A stretch of DNA of 64,000 nt. Origin: Eledone cirrhosa. Taxonomy: Eukaryota. Both the position numbers and the translations under genes were made by a program. Of the stretch, positions 1,846 through 64,000 are shown one piece after another (position 1 is the stretch's first letter; each line of letters begins with the position of its first letter). The notes beneath the pieces were generated by a model, which was not told the DNA's origin, searched no databases, and saw only the letters and a list, made by a program, of their open reading frames with translations. Where the stretch lies: positions 190,712,001 through 190,776,000 of the forward strand of contig OZ024743.1 of the NCBI GenBank assembly GCA_964016885.1, read 5' to 3'.

Positions 1846-2032
1846 TGGATTGGCAGTATCGGTAGAGGGTCGGGCGCCATGCTTTGATGCATTGAGTTAC
1901 AGCCCTTGCCATTCTGAGTTCAAATCCTGCCAAAGTTAACTTTGCCTTTCATCCTTACGGGGGTTGATAAAATAAAGTACCAGTAATGCACTGGGTAATG
2001 GATGGCCTTGTGCCAAAAGTAGAAACAATTAT
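1846..2032 (+). mobile_element. Meta-type tRNA SINE
   Basis: Same family as 1-183, full head to AGAAACAATTATT tail. Confidence 0.85.
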
Positions 2033-16440: not shown

Positions 16441-17304
16441 CATGCTGATAATAATGATGATCAATATATATTTATATATATTTATGTATGTGTGTGTGTG
16501 TGTTATTTAACACTTTTTGATCAATACTTTGAAAAAGCTATCAGCAGAAAATAGTGTATCCATGTCAGTTTTCATATATTTATACACCATATCCCTGCAT
16601 ATTGTAAGAAGTAATTCAACTATAAAATCTTGCCTTGAAAAGTCCTCCCCATCCCATATATGCATGAGAAAATCAATGTAAATATGATGATATATATGTG
16701 TGTGCATGTGTGTGTGTCTTTGAAAGCTACATACATATATTATATGTATATGTAGATGTGTTCATATGTGAATGTGTCTTTTTAGGTGTGGCACATGTCA
16801 TCTTAGAAATAATTTAATAGTTACTGTTTTAAAATATAAGAAACGTACAGCAATTTTCTTTAAGTGATAAAATATGACAATAAAACTAACTATAGAATGA
16901 AAGCAGAAAATTATAACAAACATCTGACAGTCAATGTTCTTTCCCTTCCAGTAAATTCTACATAAAAAGAATTTTCACTGAAAATTATTATTTTTTCGTT
17001 TCTCAGCAATTTTGTTTCTATCTTTGTATGTAACTATTTGTGTGAGTGTTTGTTTTTCTTTTTTTTTATTTGCTGGTATCATTAGTTCAGCATTCTACCA
17101 TATTACTTTTACTATTGCTGCATATATGCCATTCTTCTGAATAATATCTTCTATTGCCATCATCTTCTAATTAGTAATATCATCATCTTCATAAACAACA
17201 TTATATTCATCACCATCAACATTTTCTTCTTCAGTTTTTTCCCTGTGTTATTAATGTTTTATTTTCATTATTATCATTATTGTTATCATTATTTCACAAC
17301 CCAC

Positions 17305-18212
17305 AGCCAATTGAGCAGATAAATCGGTGGAAACTACTTCTAGGCTTTCTATCGAGGTATAGTGAAGGGTAACATTGATGGCATTCTTGGGGAGACTCTA
17401 AGGGTCTATGAAAATCAACTAGCCACTCTTTTCCAGAGAGCATTCAGTCCAGGGCCTATTGATAACTTCCAGAAATTCCTGGCCCATAAGTACTACCAAT
17501 GTCTACAGACATTGAACTGTCGACAGCTGGCACTGTCTGAGATGCATGCAGAGAGATGGAACCATTCTGCACACACTCGTTGAGTGTCTGACTATTGCCC
17601 ACTTGTGAGTTTATATTGAATACTTGCTGTTTTGTGTGGGATGGATTCAGCTATCAGCCAAGACCATCTTAAAGATAGCCTTGTCACCTTCCTTTAGCTA
17701 AAAAGGACAGGTAGTCTTTATCTACCTGGTGGCCATGGCAAAAGAGGTAATGTGGTGGATGCACTTAAAAGTGTTAAAGACAATGACTTTCCTCTTAACT
17801 TTGAAGTTAATGACCTTCTTGATTAACCTTTTCAGGTTTCAACTAAAGATAAAAGTCAGTGTAGCAAGAGAAATACTACCATCCAACCAGTTTGTTAAAA
17901 GCTAGGTGAGAGAGGCAAGTGTGAATGGATTTGCTTTGATTGTGTTCCTATAAATTAGAGGAGGACAACAGAGAGGGCACTTGCCCTAGTGGTCAAACTT
18001 ACCATGGCTTTGTGTGGGCTTTCTCCATGAGTGACCATTAGATATATCACCACGTTTGAGGAATTTGTTTTGTTTGATTTTTTTTTAAATGTTTTTTTAG
18101 GCTTTGTTATAAAACTTTCTTTCACACAAAAACCCCACACTACCGTTCTTTACTGCCTTTATTGTTCTTTTAATATAAGCCCTGTGTTTTTTATAGAAAA
18201 AAAATGATTATT
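17305..18212 (+). mobile_element. Degenerate L1/Tx1-clade LINE 3' end
   Basis: ORF 17362 (GILGETLRVYENQLATLFQRAFSPGPIDNFQK) is homologous to the 62357-63526 ORF; ends in ATTATTATT. Confidence 0.75.
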
Positions 18213-18505: not shown

Positions 18506-18735
18506 GGCGGGGGATTGGCGGTATCGGTAGAGGGTCGGACGCCATGCTTTGCAGCATAGAGTTACGGCTCTTTATGATCTGAGCTCAAATCCCGCCGAAG
18601 TTAACTTTGCCTTTCATACTTATGGGGTCGATAAAATAAAGTACCAGTCACGCAGTGGGGTCGATTTAATCAACTCCCCCTCCCCCAAACAAAATGACTG
18701 GCCTTGTGCCTATATAAGAAACCATTATTATTATT
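18506..18735 (+). mobile_element. Meta-type SINE (longer subfamily) inserted in (ATT)n
   Basis: Family match with GGGGTCGATTTAATC insert; flanked by ATT repeats. Confidence 0.85.
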
Positions 18736-18749
18736 ATATTGTTATTATT

Positions 18750-21700
18750 CTTTGAGTCTCAGTCACTGATGTTATTTAACTGGAAGGTTTGGTGAAATGA
18801 ATATCAAGCCGCTACCTGCAGCCCCAAATATTCAGAACGTATCGGAGGGTTCTTGCTGTTCCCAGCAAGCATGCCTTTTGAAGTGTTCCAAAAATCGGGG
18901 CTGGACTAATCTTCTTCAACCATCCTTGGAAACTCTTAGAGATAGTACCTAGTGCGCCTATGACAATCGAGACGACCTTGATTTCATGGCAGTTCCAAAT
19001 CCTTTTTAACTCCCACTTTAAATCCTGGTATCTGTTAATTTTCTCCCTTTCCTTTTCTTGCACTCTCGTGTCAAATGGACAGGCTACATCTACGATCAAG
19101 CACGATCTTTTTTCCTTGTCCAAAACCACCAGGTCAGGCCTATTGTGTTCTAATTTCTTGTCCGTCTGTATGCTAAAATCCCATAGCACCTTCACCTGAT
19201 CGTTTTCTATCACCGACTCTGGCTTATGCTCATACCACTTCTCAGAATGTGGTAAATTGTTTACTTTGCATAGATGCCAGTGGATCACCCTGCCTATCAC
19301 ATCATGTCGCCAGCCTTTATAGAGAGTCTGGGCTAGGTGTTTACACTCGGATACAATATGAGCCACAGTCCCCTATCTTTCTACCCAGATCCTACACAGT
19401 GAGCTAGCTATGGTGTTTTACCCACTTCGTTCTGAGAGCTTGCTCTTGCGCAGCCATTAGCATTCCTTCTGTCGCTTGTTTAAGGTCTGCGCTTTTTAAC
19501 CAGTTCCATATCTGTGGATCTCTGAATTATATTTTCTAAAAGAAGGTGCTATGAAGGGATTTTTCATGAAGGGTACTCCTCCTCCTAGCTGTTATTTCCT
19601 TCTTGGACACCTCCTGGTCTATTGGCTTCTCCTTCAGTACAATTTTGAGCATTGGCTCCCTACTGTCAGCCACATATTTGTGCAGGTTGGTTTTCTCCAT
19701 CTGAACACAGTCCTCTATGCTGATAAGACCTGTTCCACCTTCAGATCTCTTTAAGTAGAGTCTATCGACATCACTCCTCTTGTGGAACATGTTGTAGATA
19801 GTCAATAGCTTCTTAGTTTTCCTATCCATTTCTTTTTGTTCAGCAACATTCCATTTCAGAAGTCCCGCACTGTACCTAATAATAGACACAGCTCGGGAAT
19901 TTACTGCACTTATGACATTCCTACTATTCAGATGTGATTTTAATATGTTCCTTACTCTCATTGTGTATTCAGATCTTATGAATTTCTTCATTTTGTTGTT
20001 GTTGATTTCATCTGCCTCCAGAACACCTAAATATTTGTTTCCCTCTTCAGTGTCAATTTCCTTTATCATCTCACCTGTTTGTACCTGGATTCCGTTGCTT
20101 CTGCTCAATTTACCCCTCTTCATCACAAGGACTCCACACTTATTAACACCAAATTCCATACATATATCATTGCCGAAAATACGGACAGTGTCAACAAGCA
20201 CATCCAACTCCTCAATCTTCCCAAAGAGTTTAAGATTATCCATGAAGAGGAGGTGGTTGATGGTAAGCTCTCCTCTTCCGAACTTGTATGTTGCTCTCAC
20301 TTTTCACAATATGACGGTCAGGGGTATCAGGGCAAGGACAAACAACAAAGTGGACAAACTATCTCCCTGGAAGATACCTCTGTTGATCTTCACGCCTCCC
20401 AAGGATTCTCCACCTGATGTTAACTCTGTTTCCCAGGACTTCATACTTTTACTTAATAGGTGTTGGATGTTATCTGCCACCTTGAAGATCTCTAGGCTTT
20501 TGGTAATCCAAGAATGAGGTATCATGTCGAATGCCTTTTTGTAATCTATCCATCCCATGGCAACACCAGTGTGCCTCCTCTTACAATTCCTCATCACCAT
20601 CTTATCAATAAGTAACTGGTCCTTTGTACCACGGGACTTCTTTCTCCATCCTTTCTGTTCGTCCGGTAACAAGTTGTTTATGTGGAGGTGATAATAGATT
20701 TCCTCAGACACAATGCTTGTTAACAGTTTTCACATTACGGACAGACATGTGATAGGCCTATATTTGGTAACATCATTACCCTTGATTCGGTCTTTCATTA
20801 CCAGAAATGTGGTAGCTTTTGTCAACCCCTCTGGTACTGTACCGGACATCAAGCAGTCAGTGAACATGGTTGTCAGTTTCGGATGGAGGGATGTTATATT
20901 TTTAATCCAATATCTTTGCATACCATCTGGGCCTGGTGATTTCCAGTTGGTTAGTTTTTTGGCCTGCCCTTTAAGAGTTTCAACTGTGATACTCAAATCA
21001 GGTTGTTGGTGTGCTTGTTCACTAATGTCCTTTTGAACTGTCTCAATCCACACTGCCTGACTATTATGTTCAACATCCTGCTCCCATATTCCTCTCCAGA
21101 ATGTCTTAGCCTGTTCCGCCTCAGGGATCACATTATTGCCTCTTTCTTTCCCTTCAAGCTGTCCAAACAACATCTTCTGGTTGTTTTCAAACACGCGGTT
21201 CTGTCTATACTGAGTAACTCTGTTCTCATACCACCTAATCTTTGCACTTTTTGCTACAATGCGTTGCTTCAGTTACTCTATGATAACATTTAGCTATTTC
21301 CCCCTAGTTTTGTAATTTATTTGTAATCTATCTATAGTGTCTATGTTTTGTAATGTCCCATTCAGTAAAGACTCAAGCTTTCCAATGTCTTTTCTCATTT
21401 CCTTGATTTGACCATTCAGTCGTTTCTTCCACCAAGGTTCTGATCTTTCTTGTTTGTTGTTTCCTCTCGTTTTTATACTAAGTAATTTCCTCACTCACCA
21501 CATTTGCTGTTGCTTTGAGGATATTGTTGCATTGGTGAAGGTTCCTCGCCTCAAGGTATGGGATGACCTTGTTTACCTTAGCTGTTGTTTCTTTTAACTT
21601 TTTCCTGTCTACAAATCTTAGGTTCATAGGTTTTTCACTATCATTGTTCATTTCATCTACCACTAAGTTCAGGATATCAACCAAATCTTGCCCTGGCCCG

Positions 21701-22646: not shown

Positions 22647-23432
22647 GCAATCGGTTCAAATCCCACCGAGGTTAACTTTGCCTTTCATCCTTCCGGGATC
22701 GATAGAATAAAGTACCAGTAATGCACTGGGTAATTGCTGACCTTGTGCCAAAAGTAGAAACAATTATTGGCAATCGGTAGAGGGTCGGGCGCCATGCTTT
22801 CCAGCATAGTTACGTCCCTTTACGATCTGAGTTCAAATCCCGCCGAGTTTGACTTTGCCTTTCATCCTTACGGGGTCGATAAAATAAAGTACCAGTAATG
22901 CACTGGGTATTTGCTGGCCTTGTGCCTAAAGTAGAAACAATTATTATTTGCCTTTCATCCTGACGGGGTCGATAAAATAAAGTACCAGTAATGCACTGGG
23001 TGATTACTGGCCTTGTGCCTAAAGTAGAAACAATTATTATTTGCCTTTCATCCTGACGGGGTCGATAAAATAAAGTACCAGTAATGCACTGGGTGATTAC
23101 TGGCCTTGTGCCTAAAGTAGAAACAATTATTATTTGGCATTATTTTGCAAATATTTGGCATTATTTTATTCATCCTTACGGGGTCGATAAAATCAAGTAC
23201 CAGTAATGCACTGGTGAATTGCTGGCCTTCTGCCTAAAGCAGAAACAATTATTATTTGGCATCGGCAGTATTGGTAGAGGGTTGGACGCCAAGCTTAGTT
23301 ACGGCCATGCCATTCTGAGTTCAAATCTAGCCGAGGTTAACTTTGCCTTTCATCCTTACGTTGTCGATAAAATAAAGTACCAGTAATACACGGGGTTATT
23401 GCTGGCCTTGTGCCAAAAGTAGAAACAATTAT
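22647..23432 (+). repeat. Head-to-tail array of about six Meta-type SINE copies, full and 5'-truncated
   Basis: Repeated GTCGATAAAATAAAGTACCAG..AGAAACAATTATT units; two identical 93-bp units start at 22948 and 23041. Confidence 0.85.
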
Positions 23433-24956: not shown

Positions 24957-25051
<95 letters not shown>

Positions 25052-25368
25052 ATACTTGGGGAGGGTCATATTTGTGTAATATTGCCAGAATTAGTAACAG
25101 AACACACTCACTGTTTGGTTGGTTTTCGCTTCTCGCTGTCTTTTATATCTGCGATCTAACTTACTCGGTCCTCAATGTTGCCATTGACTGACCGACGGTC
25201 AAAAATAATACAGATACAATATAGACGCAAACACATATATATAGTTTACATAATTTACATAAATCTTTCGGTGCACATCTGCAACATCGTCAGTGGTGTT
25301 ATATTTTTTCCTCCTGTTGTGTTGTATGTCTACGCCATTTTTTATTCAGTCTGTCTATATATTTATAG

Positions 25369-25762
25369 GAAATGTATCATATGTAAGGTGAACCCCCAGA
25401 TAAACTGTAAAACTAGAAACGTAGTCTATAGCATAAGATGTACAGAGGGTACTTGCAGAAACATGACAACAACATACATAGGTGAGACAGCTCGTAGCAT
25501 AGGTGAAAGGATAGACCAACACTGGGAGGAACTAAAAGGACGAAAAAACGGATCAGTACTATACGAACATGCTAGACAACAACATGACGGTAACATAGAC
25601 AACATAGAAATTAGAATAATATCTAAACATAGGAATGACCCAGCAGATAGGCAAATCAGAGAGGCCAGTGAAATAGAAATTAGAAGACCAAATCTAAACA
25701 GAAAGAATGAGTGGAACAACAACAACACCCAAACAAACAACACTGACCAAAGAAAAGTATAA
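25369..25762 (+). pseudogene. PLE C-terminal GIY-YIG endonuclease fragment
   Basis: NCKTRNVVYSIRC....C.......YIGETARSIGERIDQH...LYEH....H...RQIREA.EI....LNRKNEW. Confidence 0.85.
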
Positions 25763-26032
25763 ATAAGTAAATAAAATAAAATAAAATAAGATAAATAAAT
25801 ACATACACAAGCACAATAACAACAAGCATATAAACACACACTAGTCACCCAGCAAACACAACACTATACACACTAGTCACACAGCAAACATAACACTATA
25901 CACACACGCAAACGCATGCGCAAAGAAGACAAAATAAAATAAACAAACAAGCAAATAAATAAATAAATATATAGACAGACTGAATAAAAAATGGCGTAGA
26001 CATACAACACAACAGGATGAAAAATATAACAC

Positions 26033-26070
26033 CACTGACGATGTTGCAGATGTGCAACGAAAGATTTATG
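26033..26070 (+). ncRNA. Hammerhead-like motif in PLE pseudo-LTR (stem I weak)
   Basis: CTGACGA-T-GTTGCA(GATG)TGCAAC-GAAA-GATT-TA. Mirror copy on the minus strand in the left arm has one stem II mismatch. Confidence 0.5.
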
Positions 26071-26322
26071 TAAATTATGTAAACTATATATATGTGTTTG
26101 TGTCTATATTGTATCTGTATTATTTTTGACCGTCGGTCAGTCAATGGCAACATTGAGGACCGAGTAAGTTAGATCGCAGATATAAAAGACAGCGAGAAGC
26201 GAAAACCAACCAAACAGTGAGTGTGTTCTGTTATTAATTCTGGCAATATTACACAAATATGACCCTCCCCAAGTATAACAATATTTGTTTCGACACACGA
26301 TTTCATATAAAAAACCTCGCTA

Positions 26323-26371
<49 letters not shown>

Positions 26372-26374
<3 letters not shown>

Positions 26375-31830: not shown

Positions 31831-33980
31831 TTATTTTTTTTAGATATATATATATATCTCAAGAAACAAAAGTAGGGAATAAGTGGGTGAGTGAAGGGGA
31901 GATATTGAACTATAAACCTATCCAAAACTATTCAATTCGACTAACTTCATATGCTGCAGTTGACAGAAATTGAGGTGTCTTTATACTGCGTTTTGTTTAA
32001 AAGTGGTTAAAGTTCTTTTCAATGTTGTTTTTATGTAAGGCTTCTTTTGGACAGTAATATTGATACAAAAGAGATAGCATATTTAAGCATATGAACTGAA
32101 TTAGCAAAGCTACAGAAATGTTTCCAAATATGTTTGTTTGTGGTTAGATGGGAACAAATGGTTATGCAGCTGAGAAACATCTGAAAGTTTAAACCTACAG
32201 CACCATGTACCTCTGGTAAGGAAGTATCGTTCTACATGTATCGGCTTACCAATTTGTCTGTTGAGACCAGAAACCAAGATTTTTGAACAGGTTACTCCAA
32301 TGTAGCAGGGCATTATTAACATCATCATCATCGTCTTCATTGGTTTTATGTTGACTTTCCCACACTGCTATAGATTGGATGGGATATTTCAAGATGTTTT
32401 ACAGCTAGATGCCATTCTTGAAGCTGACTCTTCTAGCCACTTCTTTCAACATACAGAAACACAGTGTATCTAATCTAAAAACCAGGATACACGCAACATA
32501 TAATATTTATGTATTATGTGCTCCTGACTGCTGAAAACCTTTTGTGTAGTCCCATGTGCTTCGAAATGATATTTTGTGAAATGATTAAAACTTTTCCTCC
32601 CAAATTTCTTCATATTTATTTATTTAGTTTGTAACATATACTTATTTAAATATTCTACTTTGCATGAGTCGATTCTTACACATATTAGAAAGAAACAGAA
32701 ATGAGATTTGTGATATTCAATTCTTCTGAGTAGAAAATAGCAATGTGAAATAGCCTGCAGGAAAGAAAAGCAAACCAGCTTGCAGAGGTTCTTATTTTAA
32801 GCTTTAGGCCAGTTATACAAGTATAGCAAATGTCAGATTTACAGATTTCATTTGTTTACCCACACAGATATTATCATCATCATTATCATTTTATTGTCCA
32901 CTTTTAAATGATGGCATGGGTTAAGTGAAATATTTTGAGACAGAGATAGTTCAATACCATTCCTTGATGACAACCCTTTTAGTCAACTCTTGCAGCATAC
33001 AAAGGTAGTATATACTCATTCTATAAATTAGAGTATATTATTTATTATTCAGCCCAAAGTTAACACTGATTGGCACACTGATGTTCAGGCTGTGACAAAC
33101 CCAACAATATTTTGTGCATTGGGTATCTCTCCTAATGTAAGTATCTCTTCTAATGCAACACTGTAGACTGTAAGTGAGGGTCATTTACCTGCTAATTCTT
33201 GCTGGCTGGATAGGGCCCTACTCATTTGCTTGTGATGAATAATAACTTTAAGGAATGTTCAAAGAGAATGTTGTGATATCTTATATCATTCTCAAAGAAT
33301 ATTAGTATAATCAATTAAAATTGTTTGAACTTAAACTTCATATTAGTCAGTGATCACAATATATTGAGCAGTACTCACAACCTTTGCCTCTATTGAAATA
33401 CACATTGCGTATATTGGCTAATGTTTTCAAATATTTATGGACTACAGTACTTCAGTAATACTAATCATAATTTAGAGATTGAAAAGAAATTATATATAAT
33501 TCAACCCAGGTAGAATTTGAAAATACAATATAGAAAGATATAACTGTATACTGAAAGAAATATCTAGCTCACATACATTCCTTTATTCTACAGAGTGACA
33601 TGGGTGTATTTTTATTGAAGAACTAGCATTAGAAAGGGTTTTCAAATAAAAAGTCCTCTATACTCTATGTGAAGGCCAATAGAATTTAGGTGGGCATTAG
33701 AGAGATAAAAAAGTATGGAACCATGAGTGTATGGTAGGTAGGAGAGGTGTGAAAGTATGTCATGGGTGCATGCCAAGTGTTGGGGATTAACAAGGTAATG
33801 AGTGGGAGGAGAGTGGTAATATCTGATAGCGTAGGTGGTACTGTGATGATAAGAACAGCTACCAGGGTGTTATGAAAAAAGAAAATTCACAACCTTCCTA
33901 AAAGCACCCCAACACTAAAAATAAAAAAATCGTCATGATTGAAAAACATTTTTCCTTGAAACAATTTTTATTATAATATT

Positions 33981-34336
33981 GGTGGATTGGCAGTATTGGT
34001 AGAGGGTCGGACACCATGCTTTGCAGCATAGAGTTATGACCCTTTATGATCCGAGTCCAAATCCTGCCAAGGTTAACTTTGCCTTACGAGGTTGATAAAA
34101 TAAAGTACCAGTCATGCACTGGGGTCGATTTAATCGACTTCCCCCTCTCCCAAAATTGCTGGCCTTGGGCCTATATAAGAAACCATTATAATATTGGTTT
34201 CTGATTTAGGCAGAAGGCCAACAAATTTGGAGAACGGAAAGTCGATTAAATTGAATCCAGTGCATGACTTGTATTTTATTTTATTGACCCCCATAAGTAT
34301 GAAAGGCAAAATTAAACTCAGCAGGATTTGAACTCA
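33981..34336. mobile_element. Two Meta-type SINEs tail-to-tail (+ 33981-34190, - 34195-34336)
   Basis: Family match on both strands; TTATAATATTGG flanks the first copy. Confidence 0.75.
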
Positions 34337-34794
34337 ATTATAATATTATCCATGTGTTACTTAGAAACTTGTCTTTGTACTTTCAATAGAATTGTCAATC
34401 TTCTTTATAATTTAGCTACATTTATTTGTTTTTCTTTTGTTCTTGTATTTATCTCAAAACCCTGAATATAAACGTTTGACTCAATGAAACCCCACATAAA
34501 CGCACACACATACACACACTCTCCACAGAAAAACAAAATGCTATCTGGGCCTTTCTGAATAGAAATGGAACTTTCTATTTAAATTTAAAAAATGTTTGAG
34601 TAAACCAATTAAATTCTGACTTGTTGAATTCCTCTTCCATACTCACCACCGCACCTTCATAAAAAATATACATAAAAGAGATTTTGAGAACTTCGTTGGT
34701 GATATTTAAATTCATATAATCTAACATATATGAAAATATTTACTCTGTCGGATTAAAGATAAAAATGAGTTTTTAAATAATATACTTTTATTCT

Positions 34795-45336: not shown

Positions 45337-48310
45337 ATATTCATTAGTTAAGCACAACAAGTCACAAATTTCACAAGGAAGACATTATTAAAAGATTGTC
45401 AACATATTTTAGTTTGATGTAAGGAATGTAGAGAATAATAATAATAATATTAATAATAATAATGTCCGTTTACAATTGTTTCGCTACTCCATATAATATT
45501 TCTGGATCAGATGACTATATATCATAATTGATCTGGTTCAGTTGAAAATATTTAACATATTTAAATGATAGATCGGCTCATCGGAACTTCAAAGAATATA
45601 GATTAAAATAATGAGATAATGTTACATAATATAATGTTCTATATATTGGTTTTTACTATGGTGGCTTGGTTGCATCGGTTATCAGCCATAATCAAGCAGT
45701 ATTCATCTGTCGAGGCTGAATTGTGTGAGATCTGCCTATGGGTAACAAGATGGCTGCCAAAGGGCATATTTACCTTACTAATTAGAGGGTGGTTTCAGGG
45801 GAAGTAACTTCTCGAGAGATTAGAAATTGTGGGTGTTTATAGTTAAGTGCTAATTTTTAAATTCTTTTTAATTGAGAGACAATGTAGGGGAGGTAACTTA
45901 TAATTATCGAGTTGTTCATAGCAATTTAACTTATTAGCTACAAGTAAAAATGGGGCTACATGACTAAGTTGGGTCAACAATTCTATTGGCGAAGGAATTA
46001 GCCCTTCGATGTTGACAGCTAATAGTTACCTCCGTTCTATCGTTAATCAGTAGAGGTCGTGATAGAGTTATGTACTATCCTTCCGTAATACAGAGATCAC
46101 AAGATTTTCTTCGTCCATTGAACGGTTGGGGCCTAGCCACGATATCCCATTTTAGTGAGTGTTGAACATTGTTTAATTTAAGGTTTTTAATGAGCCTAGC
46201 TAGCGATGTCGAACATCTGTTGCTGGGGTCTCGGAAGGAAAAAGAGTGCGCGTTATAGCGTAGCTTAAATGGGTTAGAGGTAGACCCGATATAAGAGCTG
46301 GTATTCGAAGCAGTCTTAACCGTGCACCTATAGACTATGTTGGGTGTCAGGCAGTGTCCATTTAATGGGCATGCATTGGGGTAACGGCTGTTGCAGTTGC
46401 TTCTGCGGTTAGTGAGAGTAGGGTTGTTTAACCTAAGTGGTAGGTCCGTGCTAGAAGGATTAGATGGGGGAGGTGTCCTACTAGAGTAATTATTGGTGTA
46501 GTGGCGTGGTGTATTTGATAGGGGTGGTGGCACCGCGGTCTGGGAGTTATACTGTCTTAGCTTATGATGGTTACTGAACGCGATGTGGCTAGCTAGGTTA
46601 GGTGTTGTGGAGAATGAGATTTTAATGTTATATTTATTAAAGAGTTTGTAATATCTATGGTTGGGGGGGGGGGTAGATAGGTTAGAGAAGAAGCGTTTTG
46701 GGGATATTAGTCGCTAGATTATATGAGAATGGGGGTTTAAGCCAGGTGATATTTCTAGGTCTATTCCTTCTAGGGGTTCTAGTGGAGTTGGTAGGGGCCT
46801 TCCTAGGGTTATTATTACCTAGGGATTTGTTATTTGTCATCCCATTTCTCATTCCTATTCTAGGGTTGATTTTTAGTTTGCTATTTGGAGTGGGGAGCAG
46901 GCCGCTGCCACAATTAAAGTTCCCTGTATAGGTGCTGTTACTGCTAAAGTTCCGGCGAATCTGCTTATATGCTAAGGTATTTCTAGTTCTAGTGTTAAGT
47001 TTATTATGGTGAATTGCTGTGTTATCGCATTTAGGTATGTAATAAATTGATTGTTTATAACCAGATTCAGATAGAGCCTTATTATAATATTGTGCGTGGT
47101 TTATAAATATCTCCTCATTTGCTGATAGCATTGAGATCCTATAAGAGATAGATTTGATTACTGCTCTGATGACTGCCGGTGGGTGGTTAGAATGTGTGGT
47201 AATATATGTGAGTATTTCACCTGGTTTACGGTAAGGGTTATATAGGTTATTGTTGAGATCCAGGGTGACGTATAGGAAGTTTACTACTTTATGGTTCGGC
47301 TCGATGGTGATAGAGAGACCGTTATTTTTGAAGAATCTATGTAATCGTTTCTTTAGCAAATCGATTCCCCGATTAGTGCAATTGTGGACTGCAAATAGGG
47401 CGTCGTCCCAGTATATTCCGCCTTGCATGGGTTGGATTTTGGCTCTGATGTTACGTAATAGGTAAATCCCAACTAAATCGGTGATTTGCGCGGAGTCACT
47501 TGAGCCCATCGTAATGTCTAAGTTGTCTGTTCTATCTTTTCTAGTCCAGAGTGCTCCGTTGAATTCAATGATAGTCTGTCTAGCCAAAAGTATGATGTTA
47601 ATATCATTATTGGTTATGTCCGAGTTGGTGGTGGCTAGGGCTAATGCTTTGTTGAGCAGTTCCGGGGTTATTGACGCGTAATAGCTGTCTATGTCAAATT
47701 GGATGAACCTCATAGATTGCTTGGACCTTAGAGCGGAGAACCATTTAATGACTTGGCCGGTGTTGGACCACAACTTGTAGGTGGTATCATCCCGTAGCCC
47801 AGGGATTATCCTATCAAGGATGTTCTTACTGATGCCGCCCAGGTCAGATGTGGTTGGGCTTATGAGTCTAATAGATGGGTTCTCTAAAAGGTTTAGCTTG
47901 TGATCCTTGAGAGAGAACCTTGGGGTTGTTGGTACACAAGGGTGGGTAAATCTATTCAGATGCAAGTCCTTAACCAAAGCCTGGGATTTTCGGTTAAGTA
48001 CGTTTAGACTGGAGGGTGTAGTTTTTTTATAGTTTTATTGAGTTCTTTTAGAAGGAAAGAGTTGTAAGTTTCAGGAGTCATGGTGTATAGATTTTTAGTT
48101 TTGTCAGACATAACATGTAAGAGGTGGCTCTTTTTAAATTTTTTTATAATTGTTGCTAATTTAGTGAGGAATATATTCTTGTGTCTATAATGATTTTTGA
48201 ACTGAATGCTCCTGACCAAGTTAAATAGATCTTTCTCAAAATGTTGACAATATTTTAATAATGTCTTCCTTGTGAAATGTGTGGTCTTGTTGTGCTTAAC
48301 TAATGAATAT
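45337..48310 (-). mobile_element. Penelope-like element (RT and C-terminal GIY-YIG, Hydra-clade-like), 5'-truncated with inverted pseudo-LTR piece
   Basis: SDKT.NLY; LKDHK..RLISP; FIQFDIDSYYASI; MGSSD; GIYWDD; CPLNGHCL..IVY..YIGST..FK.RY..H..C.LC. A 70-bp inverted repeat at 45337-45405 and 48241-48310. Confidence 0.88.
45468..45587 (-). ncRNA. Hammerhead-like motif with long stem II insertion
   Basis: GTT-CCGATGA-GC-(about 90 nt)-GC-GAA-ACAATTGT-A-AAC, in the PLE 3' region. Confidence 0.55.
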
Positions 48311-48477: not shown

Positions 48478-48646
<169 letters not shown>

Positions 48647-48647
48647 T

Positions 48648-48926
48648 GGAGGCAAGTGGCCTAGTGGTAAGGGTGTTGAACTTACGATCTTAATGTTGTG
48701 GGTTCAATTCCTGTGTTATTTGTTGTGTTTTTGAGCAAAAAACACTTCATTTCACACATTGCTCCAGTATACTCAGCTGAAAATGAGTACCAGCAATAGT
48801 TGGGGGTTTAACCCTGCGATGGACTGGCGTCCTGTCCAGGAAGTCTTGAACTCTCAGTCGCTTCATGCCATGAAACCGGGATAAGCACCAGCCAAATGAG
48901 CCTTCTGGTTTAAGGCAGACTTTAGA

Positions 48927-48928
<2 letters not shown>
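48648..48928 (+). mobile_element. CORE-like tRNA SINE
   Basis: Homologous to 1390-1670. Confidence 0.8.
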
Positions 48929-48960
<32 letters not shown>

Positions 48961-51149: not shown

Positions 51150-51396
51150 CTTGATCACCTTGACCGACCAGTCTGTCGGGCACCAATCGGCGCCGCTGGT
51201 CACAGCACGTCGTGCTGTTTTAGCCATAAGATAACGCCATCCCACTGGCTGGGCGGGCAGGCCGGTACTCATTTCTACAGCTGAGTAAACTAGAGCAACG
51301 TGAAATAAAGTGTCTTGCTCAAGGAAACAACAGATCACCTGGTCTGAGAATTGAACATACAACCTTTCGATTGCAAGCCCAATGCTCAAACCACTA
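51146..51396 (-). mobile_element. CORE-like tRNA SINE with a distinct 3' tail
   Basis: Head and CORE block shared with 53190-53330; tail GGTCAAGGTGATCAAGGTGAT. Confidence 0.7.
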
Positions 51397-51397
51397 A

Positions 51398-51820
<423 letters not shown>

Positions 51821-54340: not shown

Positions 54341-54879
54341 AATAATAATAATAATATAATAATAATGCTTTCTTTATTAACCACAAGGGTTTACACAAAG
54401 TAGACATTAAGGACAGTACAGGACAATACAGGACGGTACAAATGGGCATTTCTGCGTGTAAAAAACAAAAAAAACAGAGGATGTAATAATAGAACAATGA
54501 AAAATTCTCCAATAGGGGGAGACTTCCGAGGGCCATTGTGGAGAAAGCCTATTAAAAAAAGCCACGGTGACCCTGACCACCAAGGCAATTGTCCTCTCCC
54601 AGTTTTCCACCTTCAATTTACAGGCATATACTCAGAGTAGGTCCACTCACTCGGGCCATTCTTCCCTCTCTCACCCATCTTTCAACAAAAAGCTGGGAAG
54701 ACTACACCTCCCTCTCTACCCCGATTTTCCTTTTCAAATGAAATTGGAAAAGGTTAATCAGGGCATCACCGAAGAGGTAAGTGCTCGTCTTCAGCCCTTT
54801 CAAACGTGTCCACCATACTATCTCTTTCGCCATGGCCACCAGACAGATAAAAACTGCCTGCCCTTCCCGGCTAAAGGAA
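54341..54879 (-). mobile_element. Tx1-clade LINE 3' end
   Basis: Highly similar to 62113-62620; (ATT)n tail. Confidence 0.85.
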
Positions 54880-54884
54880 GAGAT

Positions 54885-55841: not shown

Positions 55842-58800
55842 AATGATTTCTTTAGTAACCACAAGGGTTTACATAAAGTAGACATTAAGGACAGTGCAGG
55901 ACAATACAGGACGGTACAAATGGGCTTTTCTGCGTGTAAAAACAAAAACAAAGGGTGTAACAAAAAATAACAATGAAAAATTCCCCAATAGTAGGGGAGA
56001 CTTCGGAGGGACATTTGTGGAGAAAGCCCAGTAAAAGGCCACAATGACCCTGACCACCAAGGCAAGTGCCCTCTCCCAGTTTTCCACCTTTAATTTACAG
56101 ATATATACTCAGAGTAGGCCCATTCACTCGGGCCATTATTGCTTCTCTCACCCATCTTTCAACAAAATGCTGGGAAGAGATCACTTCCCTCTCTACTCTG
56201 ATTTTCCTTTTCAAATGAAATTGGAAAAAGTCAATCAGAGCATCACCGAAGTGGTAAGTGCTCGTCTTCAGCCCTTTCAGACGTGTCCACCATACTATCT
56301 CTTTCGCCATGGCCACCAGACAGATAAAAACTGCCTGCCCTTCCCGGCTAAAGGAGGAGGGCGGGGCAATCCTCACGATGGACTCAGATGATAGCCGGAT
56401 CCGTCCTAAACGCGACAGCAGGTGTTCGAGATAAACCCACAAGTCAGCAATTTTCGGACACTGGACGAGTGCGTGCAGGACGGTTTCGTCGCCCTGCGCG
56501 CATCTCGGACATGCCCGGCTGACGGCACCTCCATGCCTGTAGAGTTTATCCCGAACTGGCAAGGCTCCTCGGTAGCACTGCCAGGCCAGAGATTTCTGGA
56601 AGTTGTCCATAGGCCCTGGCCCGAAAGTTCTTCCGAAGAGATTGGTGACTGTCTTCTGAGTGAGGTCATGTTTAAAATAGAGTGGAAAAGATGGGAAAGA
56701 CCACTTACCGTACTTTTGGTAGAGGAGGGATGGTTTTTACATCCCTTTTCACTTGATCGTCTGGTGAAGGGACCGTTGAATCGTCCCTTCGGCTGGTCGT
56801 CGGCTCTTCTTTGAGAATGTCTGAATATACTCTTCGATTGATAGTTCCTCCTAGGTCCCTGAAATCACCAACTGCGTTAGGCAATTTCGTTTTAATGTTT
56901 GTGTATTGTTTCTGTGCTATTTTTAGCAGTCTTATGTTAGTTGGCGTTTTGATTGGTGCTGGTATTATGTAGTCGTGTTGTGAAATGTCTGTGTGTTCAA
57001 TTATGTAACTCATTAGTTTCTTGTTGTGTGTATTTATTGCCGTGCATTTGTTTTTCTGGGGGTGGGGTGTGGTTCTGCTATTTTCTTGTCGCTGTTGCTG
57101 GGTGTGTGTGTTTTGTTGTTGTGTTTGCGATGTTGGTGCTTGTGGTGTTGGTGTTGAAGGTGTTGTTGGCGGTGGGGTTGTCGCCGGTGGTGATGGTGGT
57201 GCTAGTGTGGGTGGTGATGGTGTTGGTGGTGTTGCTGCTGTGGGTCTCTTTGCAGTAGACTTTACCCTTTTCTCATTTCTTTCCTCCCTTTTCAAAGGCG
57301 ACGATGCGCTGCTTCTGCGTTTGTGCCTTCTTACGACCTTTTGCCATCCCTCTCCCACCTCACACTCCACGTCTGATTCTGTGAGGTCGGGGAGGGGTAC
57401 CAGCTCCACTCTTTCACTTGTTGTTGTTGGTGATGTTTGCACTGGAGTCTCTGTTGCAGCTGCATTTGGTATTGCTGTTGTTGTTGTTAATATTTCCACT
57501 GCTGCTGCTGTTTTTGATTTCCGTGGCGTGGGTATGGGTGCCACGGACCTATCGTTCCTGGTTGCCGCTTGTCCTGTTGCTGGTAGCCGTGGAGCCGGTT
57601 TCGGAAGGAGGGGGGTTTTCTCCTTTCTCAGGGTCTTCTCGTTGCAGAAGGCCCTGAGGTGAGTCTTCGATCCACAGCGAAAGCATTTCGGGCGTTTTCC
57701 TTCAACACTTATGGGCAGTTGAGTGCCGTTATCGAAGTCTATCACATCCGGGATAGCTTCGATGCACTCCTGGTTGGTTTGGATTAGCATCTCAATGGAG
57801 GTGCCGAACCAATCTTCTCTTACTTTTTTCTGTACTTGCAGTACAGTTGTTTTGTCCTCGATTCCGACGAGGACAGACGCGGCCAGCCAAGAAGGGGCCA
57901 TCCCCGGGGGGGGGGGGGCGTGGGTCAGTTTGACCCTCACAATTTTTTGCCCGCAGTAGGAGGGCACCAACACCATTTCCTCGCTCCTTAGGGTCACTAC
58001 GGATTGGGCCTTTGCCTCCTGGGTTGTGGCAAAAAGTACGTCTACGGTGGCATATTTTTTGCCTCGGGTGATGTGCGTTTTCCGCTGCCACACAGACCCC
58101 AAGGCTTTTTGTATTTGAGCCTCTGTGGCTCTTTCCACCCTACGGGATGTTGTACTTACTGTACGGTACGTGACCGTACAGTGCTGTTGGGTTTCGAAAA
58201 ATGTTTCCGCTGCCTTGCAGATTGCTCGGTGTCCAGGTTTTGTCACCATCTTCTTCGCTTCCTCTAATTCCTCATTTGTCATGAGGATTCTTTCCAAGTT
58301 TTTCGCAATACCTGCAAATGAGATTGGTTTTTCTTTGCTGCTGTTGTTGTTGTTGTCGTCTGAGCTGCTGTTACTTTTGTTGTTGCTGCAGGTACTACGA
58401 CTACTGCCTCCGCCGCTGTTGCTGTGGTTGTTGTTGGTGTTGCTGCTGCTAATGCTGTTGTTGTTTATGCTGCTGGTGATGCTGTTGCGGCTGCTACTGT
58501 TGTTTTCATTGTCACTGTTGCTGTTGTTATTACGGCTGCTACTGCTATTATTCCTGACGTCAGACGAATGAAATGGGTTTTCGTATTTCCCGCACACTTG
58601 TTTCGTCGCTGTCGTCGTCGTCGTGGAGAAACCTTGCACGCTTTGCACGAGACTTTTCTTTTCTTTCGTCGCTTGCGAAAGAGAAGGGAGGGAGAGAGAC
58701 ACATTTAAAGAAGGGAGGGAGAGAGACAATCTTCTCTCTGCTGTAGTGATGATTGAGGAAGAAGAAGACGGAATGAGTGGGAGTGACGTATGAAATTTCT

Positions 58801-59030
58801 TTTTCGTAGCCATGTTGGTTTTTTTGTTTAAAATAAGTATTGGGTACAAAACCCCAAATATGCAGTTATTTAACCCCGAAGAGCCAAATAACGGGCAGAA
58901 AGACCCCTCTCACGAGGAGGAGGGTGTTTTTGTCTACAAGTTCGTTAAAGTTTTAAACAATTTACAATTGTTATAGTGTTCAAAATTTACAATACCTTAC
59001 AGAGCCGAGCCTCCGTCAACCATAGCATTC
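55842..59030 (-). mobile_element. Internally deleted Tx1-clade LINE: 5' UTR, intact ORF1, and the last part of ORF2 with 3' UTR
   Basis: 55842-56645 matches 62113-62907; the ORF1-like frame lies directly upstream; (AAT)n on both sides. Confidence 0.8.
56705..58813 (-). CDS. LINE ORF1 (gag-like) protein, about 702 aa, with CCHC zinc knuckle
   Basis: Open frame from ATG (MATKKKF); SFA.IAK; ISVEGKRPKCFRCGSKTHLRAFC; WQKVVRRHKRR; low-complexity S/N and P/T tracts. Confidence 0.8.
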   Translation of the reverse strand: MATKKKFHTSLPLIPSSSSSIITTAERRLSLSLPSLNVSLSLPSLSQATKEKKSLVQSVQGFSTTTTTATKQVCGKYENPFHSSDVRNNSSSSRNNNSNSDNENNSSSRNSITSSINNNSISSSNTNNNHSNSGGGSSRSTCSNNKSNSSSDDNNNNSSKEKPISFAGIAKNLERILMTNEELEEAKKMVTKPGHRAICKAAETFFETQQHCTVTYRTVSTTSRRVERATEAQIQKALGSVWQRKTHITRGKKYATVDVLFATTQEAKAQSVVTLRSEEMVLVPSYCGQKIVRVKLTHAPPPPGMAPSWLAASVLVGIEDKTTVLQVQKKVREDWFGTSIEMLIQTNQECIEAIPDVIDFDNGTQLPISVEGKRPKCFRCGSKTHLRAFCNEKTLRKEKTPLLPKPAPRLPATGQAATRNDRSVAPIPTPRKSKTAAAVEILTTTTAIPNAAATETPVQTSPTTTSERVELVPLPDLTESDVECEVGEGWQKVVRRHKRRSSASSPLKREERNEKRVKSTAKRPTAATPPTPSPPTLAPPSPPATTPPPTTPSTPTPQAPTSQTQQQNTHTQQQRQENSRTTPHPQKNKCTAINTHNKKLMSYIIEHTDISQHDYIIPAPIKTPTNIRLLKIAQKQYTNIKTKLPNAVGDFRDLGGTINRRVYSDILKEEPTTSRRDDSTVPSPDDQVKRDVKTIPPLPKVR

Positions 59031-59064
59031 AATAATAATAATAATAATAATAATAATCATTATC

Positions 59065-62061
59065 ATCACAAACAAACTAAACCTTTACTGATTTAAATCA
59101 TCTCTATTATGCATCGGCTAAAGTCACCACTCACTTATGTGGAGTGAAGATGAAAAAACAAAGGAATTCCCACAAGAAATCTACTTGGCAAGAGAACATC
59201 AATCGCCAAATAAACCTTCTCCGCTCTGACATAGAAATGTTAACAAACTATAAAGTAGGTGAACATGTTAAACAAACTAAACTTAGAAAATTGAAAAAAA
59301 AGTACAGTATAAAATCAACATGTGACATAGACATGCTGATAGAAATAATCAAGCAAAAAGTGTCGGCCAAAGCTGCTCGTATCAGGCGCTTTGAAAATCC
59401 GATCTAGATTCTATAAGGACAATAATATGTTCAAAAACAACCAACGAAACTTCTACAGAAAAATTGGTAAGTCAACAATAACTGCTAAATCAATACCACC
59501 CAAGGAGGAAGTGCAAGAATTCTGGGAAAAGATCTGGGCCGAAGAAAATGTTCATAACATACATGCCCCATGGATAGACAGACAAATGAAAGATACAGCT
59601 CACCTTGAGGAACAAATATGGGAAAATATAACAGTTGAACAGTTGCGCTTGGCTCTAAGAAAAACCAGCAAATGGAAATCCCCAGGAAAAGACAAAATAC
59701 AAAACTTTTGGATAAATGCCTTCACAGAGTCTCATGAGCTGTTAGCCCAACTTTACAATGAAATAGTTAAGGAGCCAGAAAAGATACCATCATGGCTAGT
59801 TAACGGCATTACATTCCTGCTTCCGAAGAATGATGAGACAAACAATCCCAAAAATTACAGACCGATAACTTGCTTGACCACAATGTATAAAATTTTAACA
59901 TCAGTCCTAACTGAATACACATATGACCACCTGATAACAAATGACCTATTTCCCATTGAGCAGAAAGGGTGTAAACGAGGCTCATATGGCTGTAAGGATC
60001 AGCTTCTGGTTAACAAAATGATACTGGAAGCTTGTCATAATAGACACAAAAATCTATCGATTGCTTGGATAGATTATAAAAAAGCATTCGATAGTTTGCC
60101 ACACAGTTGGATTGAAAAATGTTTAGAGATTTTCAAAATATCCCCCGTTGTCAGGAGGTTTTTGTCATTCAATATGAGGACATGGAAAACGACACTCCTT
60201 TTGAATAGTGAAACAAAATCACTGGAAGCTGGAGAAGTTAATATTAACTGTGGAATTTTTCAGGGTGACTCTTTATCCCCGCTTTTATTCTGCATCGCAC
60301 TTATACCATTAAGTAAAATGCTCAATGAAACAAAACATGGATATAAAGTCGATGACAAAACCATTAATCACCTGTTCTACATGGATGACCTGAAACTATT
60401 TGGAAAAAAATGATGAACAATTAAAAGGGCTATTATCCACTGTGGAGCAGTTCAGTGATGACATTAAAATGGAGTTTGGACTAGATAAATGCGCCAAAGC
60501 AACGTTCACCAGAGGAAAGCTGCTGAAGAGTTCAGACATTAATCTTGATCGGGGGAACGTGATAAGAGAACTTGATCAAGAAAGAACTTACAAATATCTA
60601 CGTTTTTGTGAAGGAGACGGAATCAAGCACTCGACAATGAGGGAAAGGATAAGGAAGGAATGTTACCGCAGAGTAAGAGCAATCTTAAGAACGGAATTGA
60701 ATGCAAGGAATAGGATCGATGCCATAAACACGCTTGCCATACCAGTAGTGTCCTACAGTTACAACGTCATCAACTGGTCAAGCACAGAGATCCGTAGGCT
60801 CGATACAAAAATTCGAAAATTCTTAACCATGCACAGAAGGCATCACCCTAAGGCAGATATAGATAGAATATATCTCCCTAGGAAAGAAGGAGGACATGGG
60901 TTAATCCAGTTAGACATTGCGTTGAAAACTGCAACAATTGGATTATCTACATATCTAATGGAATCACATGATTGGATGATCAAACTCGTTTTGAAACACG
61001 AAAGCATCAAAAGATCATATTCCATTACAAAAGATGCACAAAGATACAGTAATGGACTACAAATTTCAGAAGTCCCATTTACTGCTGAAATGGAAAACAC
61101 AGAAAAAGCAAAGCAGGTAAAAGTAGCTGCAAAGAAAGAACTGCTACAGAAACTGGCTAAGAAATGGCAAGAAAAGCCTCTGTATGGAAAATACCCAGAG
61201 CGAGCTAACAATTCTGATGTTGACAAAACTTTAACCCATCAGTGGTTGGCATCCTCTGGACTGAAATCGGAGACTGAAGGACTGATTATATCAGCTCAAG
61301 ATCAGTGTCTGCCAACAAAAAAATACCAAGCCAACATAATAAAAAATGGATGCAGCCCATTATGCCGTGTATGCAAAAAACAACCAGAGACCATTGACCA
61401 TATAATTTCAATGTGCACCAACCGAATACCTAAACAGGCATGACAGAGCTGCACAATACATACATTGGATAATGTGTAAGCATTTTGACCTGCCCCATCA
61501 AAAGAATTGGTGGGAACATCAACCACTTCCCATACTTGAAAAAGATCACATCTCAATCTTGTGGCACTTTAGCATCCAAACAGACCGAAAAATAGATGCA
61601 AATAGACCTGATATAATATTGAAGGACTTTAAAAAGAGGGTATGCCTGCTAATTGATATGTCAGTTCCAATAGACAAGAATGTATCTATAAAAACATTTG
61701 AAAAATTGAGCAAGTATAAGGACCTAGAGATAGAAATTGGAAAAATGTGGAAATTGAGAACTAAAACAATACCAGTGGTTGTAGGCGCTCTGGGAATGAT
61801 ATCTAAGGGGTCTAATGATTACTTATCGCAAATCCCAGGAAACCCGCGTATAGGAGAAATACAAAAGATAGTACTAATGGGAACTGCCCATATACTGAGG
61901 AAGATTCTGTCAATATAAGTACATCACAAGTCTAAACACTAAAGATGCATGTGTGAGTATGTATGTTCTTTCTTGAACATGGCGGACCTTGTTGTCTCTT
62001 GAGGTCACTGGTTGTGACTTGGTGATAACTCGTATGAACATAAAGCAAGATAAATGCAACT

Positions 62062-62063
<2 letters not shown>
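59065..62063 (+). mobile_element. 5'-truncated R4/Dong-clade LINE (third family), few frameshifts
   Basis: [45 protein letters not shown]...ETIDHI, RHD, NRPD..ID.SVP..EK..KY.DL; (TAA)n tail. Confidence 0.92.
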
Positions 62064-62112
<49 letters not shown>

Positions 62113-62115
<3 letters not shown>

Positions 62116-64000
62116 TTTTCTTTATTAACCACAAGGGTTTACATAAAGTAGACATTAAGGACAGTACAGGACAATACAGGACGGTACAAATGGGCATTTC
62201 TGCGTGTAAAAAACAGAGGATGTAATATAATAACAAAGAAAAATTCCCCAATAGGGGGGAGACTTCCGAGGGACATTTGTGGCGAAAGCCCATTTAAAGA
62301 CCACAGTGACCCTGACCACCAGGGCAAGTGCCCTCTCCCAGTTTTCCACCTTTAAGTTACAGACACATACTCAGAGAAGGCCCATTCATTCGGGCCATAC
62401 TTGCTTCTCTCACCCATCTATCAACAAAATTCTGGGAAGAGAGCATTACCCTCTCTACTCTGATTTTCCTTTTCAAATGAAATTTGAAAAGGTTAATCAG
62501 GGCATCACCGAAGAGGTAAGTGCTCGTCTTCAGCCCTTTCAAACGTGTCCACCATACTATCTCTTTCGCCATGGCCACCAGACAGATAAAAACTGCCTGC
62601 CCTTCCCGGCTAAAGGAAGAGGGCAGGGCAATCCTCACGATGGACTCAGCTGATAGCTGGATCCGTCCTACACGTGACAGCAGGTGTTCTACATAAACCC
62701 ACAAGTCAGCAATGCTCGGACACTGGACGAGTGCGTGCAGGACGGTTCCGTCGCCCTGTGCGCATCTCGGACATGCCCGCCTGACGGCACCTCCATGCCT
62801 GTAGAGTTTATCCCGAACTGGCAAAGGACGCCGATAGCACTGCCAGGCCAGGGATTTCTGGAAGTTGTCCATAGGCCCCGGCCCGAAAGTCCTTCCGAAG
62901 AGATTGGCTAGTTGATTTTCGTCGACGCCTAGAGTTTCTCCAAGTACGTCGTCGCTCTTACCCTCCGCTAATCCCCTATAGAACGCCAAGGTGGAGTTTC
63001 CACCGATCACATTGCCCGATTGGTCGAGGGCTGTGAGCGCCTGAAGAAATTCCAGTCTCCAAGCGCTCCCTCTCGATCTTCGCTTGACCCAGGACTGCAG
63101 CTCCGTCAAGGAGACGAGCTGGGGAAAAACGTGTCTAGCAAACGGCGACCACACCTGATCACCGTCGAGGAAGAGGTGGAGATGTCGTAGCCTGAGCGCA
63201 TGTCTGCGCATCATCAGCCACGGCTTGCCCAGCCATCCATGTAGCGGGTGTTGACAGCACATGGACCGCCTGACCATCGCAGCGCGTCCCTTCCACAAGA
63301 AACGAAAGAGCAAACGCTCCAGCGCATTCAGGCTGGGCTTAGGACAAGGTACGACAGTCAGGCGGTAGTAGATGACGGACGCGATGTACGCGTTAGCCAC
63401 CTCCGCTCGACCTTTCAGGGATAGCTTCCTGTCGGCCCATTTCTGGGTGAGAGACGCCACCCTGCTCGTCACCTCGTCCCAGTTTTTGTCCGTCTGGAGG
63501 TCTGGACCGAACCAGACCCCTAGCAATTTAACCGGTCCGTCCGTCCAGCGCTGTTGGACGGCATGGACCTGCCTCTCCAGGTGCCGAGCTGCAGGCTCAC
63601 TGACTTTTCATGGTTTATCATCGCTTCGTATTCTATTAGTGTAGTGCCGATCGCCTCGATGTGTTTGGCGTTCGACACCACTACGGTGACATCGTCCGCA
63701 TATGCTAACACGGATATTCCGCATCCTAGTTCGCGTGGGACCCCCCTCAACGTCTCCAGTTTGTGCAGTAATGGCTCGAGAGTCAATACGTACAATAGGG
63801 ACGAGAGGGGACATCCTTGGCGGACCGAGCGCATGAAGTTGAACGGTTCCGAAAGGTGACCGTTCACTCTCACTACAGAGCAGATGTCGCTGTGCATGGC
63901 AGCGATCGAGCCTCTGAAGACGGGCCCAAAGCCAGCCGCCCTCAGGACTGCCGCTAGGTAACGATGATCGACCCTATCGAAGGCTTTCGACTGATCTAAA
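62113..64000 (-). mobile_element. L1/Tx1-clade LINE ORF2 (RT and C-terminal Cys-rich region), continues past the window end
   Basis: DQSKAFDRVDH, VRQGCPLS, AYADDV, LGVWFG, LSLKGRA, CPRC....T.LH.L..C. Confidence 0.9.

Follow-up and report, generated by a model that had tools for sequence, protein, structure and literature searches.

In a 64,000-nt stretch of the Eledone cirrhosa genome (assembly GCA_964016885.1, OZ024743.1:190,712,001-190,776,000, forward strand; hereafter the window), copies of a short interspersed element (SINE) and of a Tx1-type long interspersed element (LINE) end in similar sequences beside (ATT)n microsatellites. The original prediction held that the SINE is mobilised by the LINE family ending near position 62110, here called family A, by means of a covarying 3' hairpin present in both. 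Our analysis makes it very probable that the SINE is copied by Tx1-type machinery, with an ATT-targeting Tx1-type lineage as the best candidate. Family A itself is an unlikely partner, being the worst of seven tail matches and younger than most SINE copies; the partner is most likely to be found among its older sisters, families B and C. With somewhat less confidence, we favour a reading in which the ORF2 (open reading frame 2) protein of one of the sampled ATT families copies the SINE in trans through hairpin-dependent recognition. The partnership is well supported and probably so far unreported.

A 3' end common to the SINE and a Tx1-type lineage

On the minus strand the end of family A reads AACC (62139-62136), CTTGT (62135-62131), GGTT (62130-62127), AATAAA (62126-62121), GAAA (62120-62117) and AC, followed by (ATT)17. 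The letters originally given for the Tx1-type ends at this site and at 54369-54387 and 55847-55865, and for the SINE ends at 2003-2027 and 23403-23427, are correct. The common CTTGT loop and its spacing to AGAAA were likewise borne out: a scan of the window for CTTGT-N9-AGAAA returned 20 matches against 0.22 expected, comprising 15 SINE ends, three Tx1-type ends and two unrelated sites. Elsewhere in the genome, the 40 best matches to the last 309 bases of family A are 98-100% identical to it, and at the end of all 30 opened copies this hairpin precedes a run of ATT repeats.

The hairpin-AATAAA-GAAA end is common to an entire lineage of Tx1-type elements, with at least three (ATT)n families and four (ATCT)n families. 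Other ends of the same build were seen in the flanks of family A copies, and a pattern that excludes family A, followed by ATT, has 6,299 genome matches against one for its control, the C-terminus of ORF2 lying upstream in 23 of 30 opened loci of such ends. Sister ends followed by (ATCT)n were first met in a random sample (1 Mb taken at round coordinates of the ~3-Gb genome, or 0.03%) and have 7,336 genome matches against none for the control (loci L272-L301; L225, L231, L036). Clustering of 92 ORF2 ends resolved families B and C, which adjoin ATT, and E1-E4, which adjoin ATCT; AATAAA and then GAAA occur in 85 of the 92, most of the loci having been selected by that motif. Protein matches alone identified eight Tx1-type copies in the random sample; seven of them end in the motif and the eighth is interrupted by a SINE. 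The loop is CTNGT throughout, set between stems AACC/GGTT in family A, GGCC/GGCC in B, AGCC/GGCC in C and TGCC/GGCA in E1. In the tree, computed after row L290 had been dropped from the protein alignment as likely in the wrong frame, the ATCT families form one group (91/96), and the branching of the ATT families is not settled. The motif appears to be limited to this lineage, because it is absent from the 11 metagenome relatives with readable 3' DNA (of 21 loci, at 26-53% identity).

Resemblance to the SINE tail was scored by 3'-anchored alignment of LINE ends with the commonest end of the short SINE form. Family A scores 11.5 with 17 identities, the poorest of the seven families; B scores 23.5, C 24.5, E1 31.5 and E2-E4 22.5-24.5, these six having 21-24 identities in 32 positions. 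As background, 264 of 4,314 sites just upstream of ATTAT reach the family A score, 67 of them neither SINE- nor Tx1-like, and of the roughly 4,200 sites beside ATT in the 1-Mb sample that are not SINE ends, at most one reaches the scores of B, C and E1-E4. The 'SINE-like' filter applied here was broad; among the 55 listed rows, read from a score of 39.5 down, all those above 22 are SINE ends except one or two. The SINE and the Tx1-type lineage thus have a common 3'-terminal sequence of the sort expected of a stringent pair, though a short one. SINE ends followed by ATCTATCT number only two in the genome (one junction frame tested), which indicates the ATT branch as the partner. Three SINE bodies (loci L150, L302, L303) carry a Tx1-type tail, with the switch inside the shared loop; such hybrids are rare, and they show that SINE and Tx1 ends are exchangeable without implying spread of the hybrid form.

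Insertion signature and age

The strongest evidence for the partnership is the insertion signature. Of 182 SINE copies, 90 have a duplication scoring at least 10 (control 43/362), and 74 of these duplications begin at the first ATT after the element. In a set of 30 SINE copies unselected on their flanks, 20 have an 11-20 bp duplication from the first ATT, one of which is pure repeat (control 13/870). For the Tx1-type LINEs, 30 copies with short ATT flanks were opened; 12 of the 24 that are truncated within the locus have a 10-19 bp duplication at the 5' boundary, again from the first ATT (control 14/696). A pyrimidine precedes this ATT in 39 of 43 SINE cases and in all 12 Tx1-type cases. The comparison of target duplications suggested by the original prediction therefore speaks for it, since the SINE and Tx1-type elements share duplication length, the start at the first ATT and the preceding pyrimidine; duplications of the ATCT-type families were uninformative. 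For both elements the ATT run is mostly target and not encoded tail. The (ATT)n once described as a shared tail does adjoin both ends, but the duplication tests identify it mostly as duplicated target. The start after TATT|G, also offered as a link, carries little weight because insertion into ATT runs already yields such a start; the 5' ends of the SINE vary.

In pairwise comparison, copies of the short SINE (70) are on average 0.896 identical and those of the long SINE (45) 0.802; the corresponding means are 0.910 for family B (24 copies), 0.908 for C (11) and 0.946 for A (19, biased to young ones). Thus, when the ages are compared, as had been proposed, it is B and C that overlap the SINE best, and family A is younger than most SINE copies. 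Identical insertion signatures and overlapping activity, as in stringent pairs, are therefore found for the SINE and this lineage. Family E4 looks young (0.985 pairwise, four copies).

The predicted terminal hairpin

Across 14 family-level rows, all related to one another, the three inner pairs of the hairpin are intact without exception: the closing C-G is invariant, a G-C becomes A-U in family A, and a C-G becomes G-C in the SINE. The covariation score of 0.368 was reached by none of 500 shuffles, and slid controls gave at most 0.099. Folding of the 3'-terminal 35 nt, carried out on 197 SINE copies, gives the closing pair a median probability of 0.95, and values across the Tx1 clusters are 0.44-0.96. 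Of the four-pair SINE stem originally described, the inner 3 bp stand and the outer pair is often broken; among 285 SINE copies a T-A pair is present at this position in 46% and a T.T mismatch in 54%, so that the usual SINE stem is 3 bp. For A, C and E2-E4, though not for B and E1, folding predicts a longer helix at the base of the hairpin. Contigs from public runs, with four runs matching the LINE end and four the SINE, had no hairpin changes among the rows listed, and were not used as evidence.

Proposed mechanism and alternative explanations

The SINE and the Tx1-type LINEs agree in their 3' end, strand, junction, duplication pattern and overlapping ages. Because of the shared 25-30 nt end, the ATT sites and the duplications, the SINE is likely to be copied in trans by an ATT-targeting Tx1 ORF2 protein, with the hairpin, as we infer, being the recognised signal. 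Elements of this kind, that is LINEs lacking long terminal repeats, are known to insert by target-primed reverse transcription. In the present case RNA polymerase III would transcribe the SINE from its A and B boxes and run into the downstream ATT run; the ORF2 protein would bind the predicted 3-bp hairpin with its CUNGU loop, held at a fixed distance from GAAA. Its endonuclease would nick the bottom strand opposite Y|ATTAT, and the freed end could pair with the AUU repeats of the RNA, so that reverse transcription would be primed immediately behind GAAA-NN. With the other strand cut 10-20 bp further on, a duplication beginning at that ATT would result. Only tentatively would we extend this to a two-key system, in which one hairpin licenses the RNA for both the ATT and the ATCT branches of Tx1 and the last repeats of the RNA choose the branch that primes. 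Bearing on such a system, the SINE end is closest to an ATCT-type family, yet over 134,000 SINE ends compare with only two junctions at ATCT.

Several observations weigh against hairpin-dependent copying by the sampled ATT families. The two ends have only a short and partly A-rich sequence in common (21-24 of 32), and the best match to the short SINE is E1, which targets ATCT, a site that the SINE hardly uses. Covariation is modest, with about two independent compensatory events; 29 of 500 shuffles yield at least as many doubly changed pairs. In the covariation check called for by the original prediction only the inner pairs are kept throughout, the outer one being open in seven of the 14 rows. 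The statement there that three of four pairs covary came from comparing the SINE with the most divergent family, for against the sisters there is one swapped pair, and the loss of one pair relative to family B would explain the difference equally well. Three SINE copies fold otherwise in a 53-nt context. The constant distance between stem and GAAA, which counts in favour of the hairpin (7 nt in 291 of 342 SINE copies, with a variable spacer sequence), is partly a matter of selection, about 60 of these copies having been picked by patterns that fix the spacer. As to the duplications, the positive Tx1 set was chosen for its short ATT flanks; a first automated test on all Tx1 ends was not significant (13/45 against 41/175), because ATT runs and deletions blurred the boundaries, and among long Tx1 copies, whose flanks are mostly pure (ATT)n, one in 20 has a clear non-repeat duplication. 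Finally, the random sample is small.

The same Tx1-type families might instead act loosely on any RNA with 3' AUU repeats, the hairpin being an unneeded relic of the origin of the tail. We hold this to be unlikely, though it has to be taken seriously, as it explains the target and duplication data equally well, and as the stem is marginal, its outer pair being broken in about half of the copies. Furthermore, L1-clade elements are mostly relaxed according to the available text of PMC3472496, and SINEU, which ends in poly(A), was assigned to Tx1-Mar by target and age, as the accessible part of PMC4494074 has it. Against loose copying, the loop, inner stem and spacing are kept in seven Tx1 families with otherwise different 3' untranslated regions (UTRs) and in both SINE forms. 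Other ATT-rich RNAs are also not dominant: of 376 ends adjoining ATT runs, from loci among which SINE and Tx1 are over-represented, the SINE/Tx1 cluster accounts for 209, with only two other small families. It is rather improbable that the true partner is a LINE family outside the sample, of low copy number or extinct, perhaps a Tx1 subfamily with the exact GGC/GCC stem, and that the known families are its relatives. That stem occurs in no sampled family, the random sample covers 1 Mb of 3 Gb, and the long SINE, at 0.80 pairwise identity, is older than the sampled families; however, a search of the genome for the SINE stem with a poly(A)-signal-like spacer found no LINE with this stem and AATAAA, as only four of its 93 matches had AATAAA and all 30 opened loci were SINE copies (29 by motif test, one by eye).

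Among the ends adjoining ATT runs, the sole serious rival of the SINE/Tx1 cluster is a family that we take to be CR1-type from its C-terminal motifs. It has 4,520 exact-end matches in the genome, its own terminal hairpin and an encoded (ATT)n tail, and lies on the same strand as the SINE (loci L355-L384, L055); moreover, CR1, L2 and Nimb are SINE partners in molluscs as reported in the accessible part of PMC11481361. Nevertheless, movement of the SINE by a classic stringent LINE, be it this CR1-type family, RTE or Dong/R4, is very improbable and largely refuted. The sampled CR1-type, Dong/R4-type and RTE-type ends and one other ATT-associated end show no likeness to the SINE tail (scores of -6 to 10.5), so that the rival-LINE check called for by the original prediction yields no better match than Tx1. 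The CR1-type family adds at least three ATT units in 27 of 30 copies and shows an ATT-initiated duplication in one of 26 (control 28/754). RTE-type ends precede (ATG)n (the search pattern required that repeat, which was also seen in the random sample), and Dong/R4-type elements end in (AAT)n, the same microsatellite on the opposite strand. Least credible of all is a chance likeness between two unrelated A-rich ends beside the same microsatellite: the family A match alone is weak enough for it, 67 non-SINE sites of 4,314 scoring as high, but no more than one such site equals the scores of the six other Tx1 families, and the independent duplication signature agrees. Copying by the Tx1-type lineage, most likely by families B and C, remains our preferred reading.

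The SINE, the Tx1-type LINE and other features of the window

The SINE occurs in a short form of ~190 nt and an older long form of ~220 nt. It has 134,382 exact-end matches genome-wide and makes up 2.5% of the 1-Mb random sample. Like SINE2 elements it is short, non-coding and dispersed, with target duplications in the 20 of 30 copies mentioned above; using our own patterns, an A-box-like motif was found in 46 and a B-box-like motif in 34 of 51 full copies, and ARAGORN and Rfam found no tRNA in the head. The 'Meta-type' label of the original prediction is not supported and should be dropped. No 66-bp Meta domain is apparent after the head, the central block having no visible likeness to BivaMeta-SINE1 or BivaMD-SINE1 as printed in the accessible supplement of PMC4824008. 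Two 14-nt BivaMeta/BivaMD motifs, allowing three mismatches, matched none of the SINE copies of the window and had five and three matches elsewhere, which is the chance level. As regards the CORE, Deu/Nin and Ceph SINE superfamilies, core motifs had no match in the supplements of two papers or in the literature library, and no assignment to another superfamily emerged. At 33963-34343 two SINE copies on opposite strands lie tail to tail and overlap at one ATTATAAT site, a similar case being found at locus L127. A second short interspersed repeat, of ~320 bp and with a different 3' end, is present at 1387-1715, 48646-48957 and 51268-51582.

Table 1. Positions of elements and motifs in the 64,000-nt window
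Position	Strand	Feature	Basis
1847..2027	+	Short-form SINE with A-/B-box-like head, core and tail	sequence
2003..2025	+	SINE terminal hairpin TGGC-CTTGT-GCCA (predicted), 6-nt spacer and GAAA	
12132..12317	-	Short-form SINE with clear target duplication from the first ATT	
17294..18207	+	Old diverged Tx1-type fragment, 53-63% amino acid identity to family A, decayed 3' end	
18506..18723	+	Long-form older SINE, tail GGC-CTTGT-GCC-TATATAA-GAAA-CC	
22656..23427	+	Nested/tandem SINE cluster, every copy inserted at the ATT behind the preceding one	
54367..54882	-	5'-truncated Tx1-A copy, same 3' hairpin	
55845..59030	-	Tx1-A-type copy with alternative 5' UTR/ORF1 (734 amino acids), most of ORF2 deleted, same 3' hairpin	
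59058..62063	+	Dong/R4-type LINE with reverse transcriptase and restriction-like endonuclease motifs, ending in (AAT)n; rejected as partner	
62064..62114	-	(ATT)17 target microsatellite, common to the Dong/R4-type element ending on the opposite strand	
62115..62126	-	AATAAA and GAAA, with the two terminal bases of the LINE	sequence
62127..62139	-	Family A terminal hairpin AACC-CTTGT-GGTT (predicted)	shared by 30 genomic copies, of which two have a single change
62115..64000	-	Full-length Tx1-type LINE of family A, 3' part (ORF2 C-terminus with zf-RVT, 3' UTR)	protein domains, genomic matches

The family A element extends ~4 kb past the edge of the window, where its 5' end follows another (ATT)n. 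In this copy frameshifts have broken ORF2 into three pieces, with the ORF1 region, endonuclease, reverse transcriptase (RT) and zf-RVT still recognisable. The family has the architecture of the L1/Tx1 group, namely ORF1 and an ORF2 with N-terminal APE endonuclease, RT and C-terminal zinc knuckle, and the best solved-structure match of its ORF2 is human L1 ORF2p, residues 17-552. Its sole clade-named protein match is a 'Transposon TX1' protein at 27%, our tree contains no named references, and comparison with a protein atlas gave no clade name for the family A-type LINE. We call the lineage Tx1-type because of its ORF architecture and of a Tx1-like target specificity, for (ATT)n in families A-C and for (ATCT)n in E1-E4. 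The closest named relative of family A is from Argonauta hians (73%), which indicates an octopod host. Public runs of 15 organisms contain 0.10-0.60 of the words of the LINE stretch 62112-63600, in which related species, contamination and transfer are not distinguished; none of the runs listed with this stretch is an RNA run.

The family A-type ORF2 and 3' end are joined to at least two different 5' UTR/ORF1 modules (~40% alike in amino acids; loci L025, L028, L030, L266), and families B and C have a third kind of 5' end, which looks like a swapping of 5' modules as in L1. A HAL1-like family consisting of ORF1 only was considered for 55845-59030 and rejected, the ORF2-deletion junction being single-copy among 40 scored matches. 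Two Dong/R4-type families (window 59058-62063 on the plus strand and ~18740-21272 on the minus; loci L043, L071, L266) use the ATT/AAT microsatellite on the opposite strand; the clade of the 59058-62063 element is presumed from its motifs. Tx1, Dong and SINE copies are nested end to end around ATT/AAT microsatellites, and a further repeat family ending before (ATT)n has three copies in the survey (near the ATT runs of L035 and L057, and upstream in L008). Long frames at 46075-48034 (minus strand) and 24960-26374 have no Pfam match, and similar frames are common in the random sample; going by their motifs, they presumably resemble pieces of Penelope-type RT and GIY-YIG.

Relation to known systems

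The L1-clade LINEs are thought to have mostly lost specific recognition of RNA ends. If our reading is true, an animal SINE-Tx1 pair sharing a hairpin would mean stringent recognition on the Tx1 side, and would bear on the ancestral state of the clade. It would also name the likely engine of a SINE that fills about 2.5% of the Eledone genome. SINE expansions mark octopus genomes, and no partner is named in the available parts of the reports (PMC8967140, PMC13282606). Should the two-key system be true as well, the Eledone pair would be the first known in an animal in which a SINE and a Tx1 element are stringently linked by a hairpin, and altering the terminal repeats of the SINE would redirect it to the other microsatellite. 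How RNA recognition is kept separate from target choice could be studied on the sister branches, a natural experiment that combines a single RNA signal with two targets. Our literature search, which left most subscription papers and Repbase outside it, found neither the present pair nor any animal Tx1-SINE pair with a common hairpin.

In the eel pair UnaL2/UnaSINE1 the terminal repeat is said to be the encoded tail, and the requirement for a 3' structure has reportedly been shown by experiment. As in the stringent L2, CR1 and RTE pairs (accessible text of PMC3747384), a terminal hairpin and short repeats are the likely recognition and priming signals in Eledone, although the LINE belongs to a different clade. 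As in the MetaSINEs, a tRNA-like head stands directly before a conserved central block, but this block is unlike the bivalve Meta sequences printed in the available part of PMC4824008; the partners reported for bivalve Meta elements are Nimb and CR1-Zenon (PMC11481361, as far as accessible).

Closer parallels are ZmSINE2 and ZmSINE3 with LINE1-1_ZM of maize and sorghum, and SINEX-3_CR with L1-1_CR of Chlamydomonas, in which an L1-clade LINE and a SINE have a common 3' end (available parts of PMC3472496 and PMC3747384). For the monocot pair a hairpin is described there in which changes compensate each other and the loop is conserved, as is the 3' flank. The three SINEs with L1 tails in the accessible part of a 2012 survey are all plant or algal. 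Unlike these poly(A)-ended pairs, which share 45-80 nt according to the same two papers, the Eledone pair is animal and target-specific, with a shorter and weaker hairpin. In crocodilians, mobilisation of SINEU by target-specific Tx1-Mar families was inferred from shared target and overlapping age (PMC4494074, accessible text), and the present SINE is likewise assigned to a target-specific Tx1 by target and age. SINEU differs in its U1/U2 head and poly(A), with no shared 3' hairpin reported in that text; the Eledone SINE has a tRNA-like head, no poly(A), a microsatellite target and the common 3' motif. The same source describes Tx1 families that, like those found here, are LINEs with APE endonuclease and RT inserting into one simple repeat: Kibi into (TC)n, Koshi into (TTC)n, and crocodilian families into (TTCC)n or (TTTC)n. 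No SINE partner is named for them in its available part, whereas in Eledone sister sub-lineages specific to (ATT)n and (ATCT)n have one common 3' motif, which is also that of the SINE.
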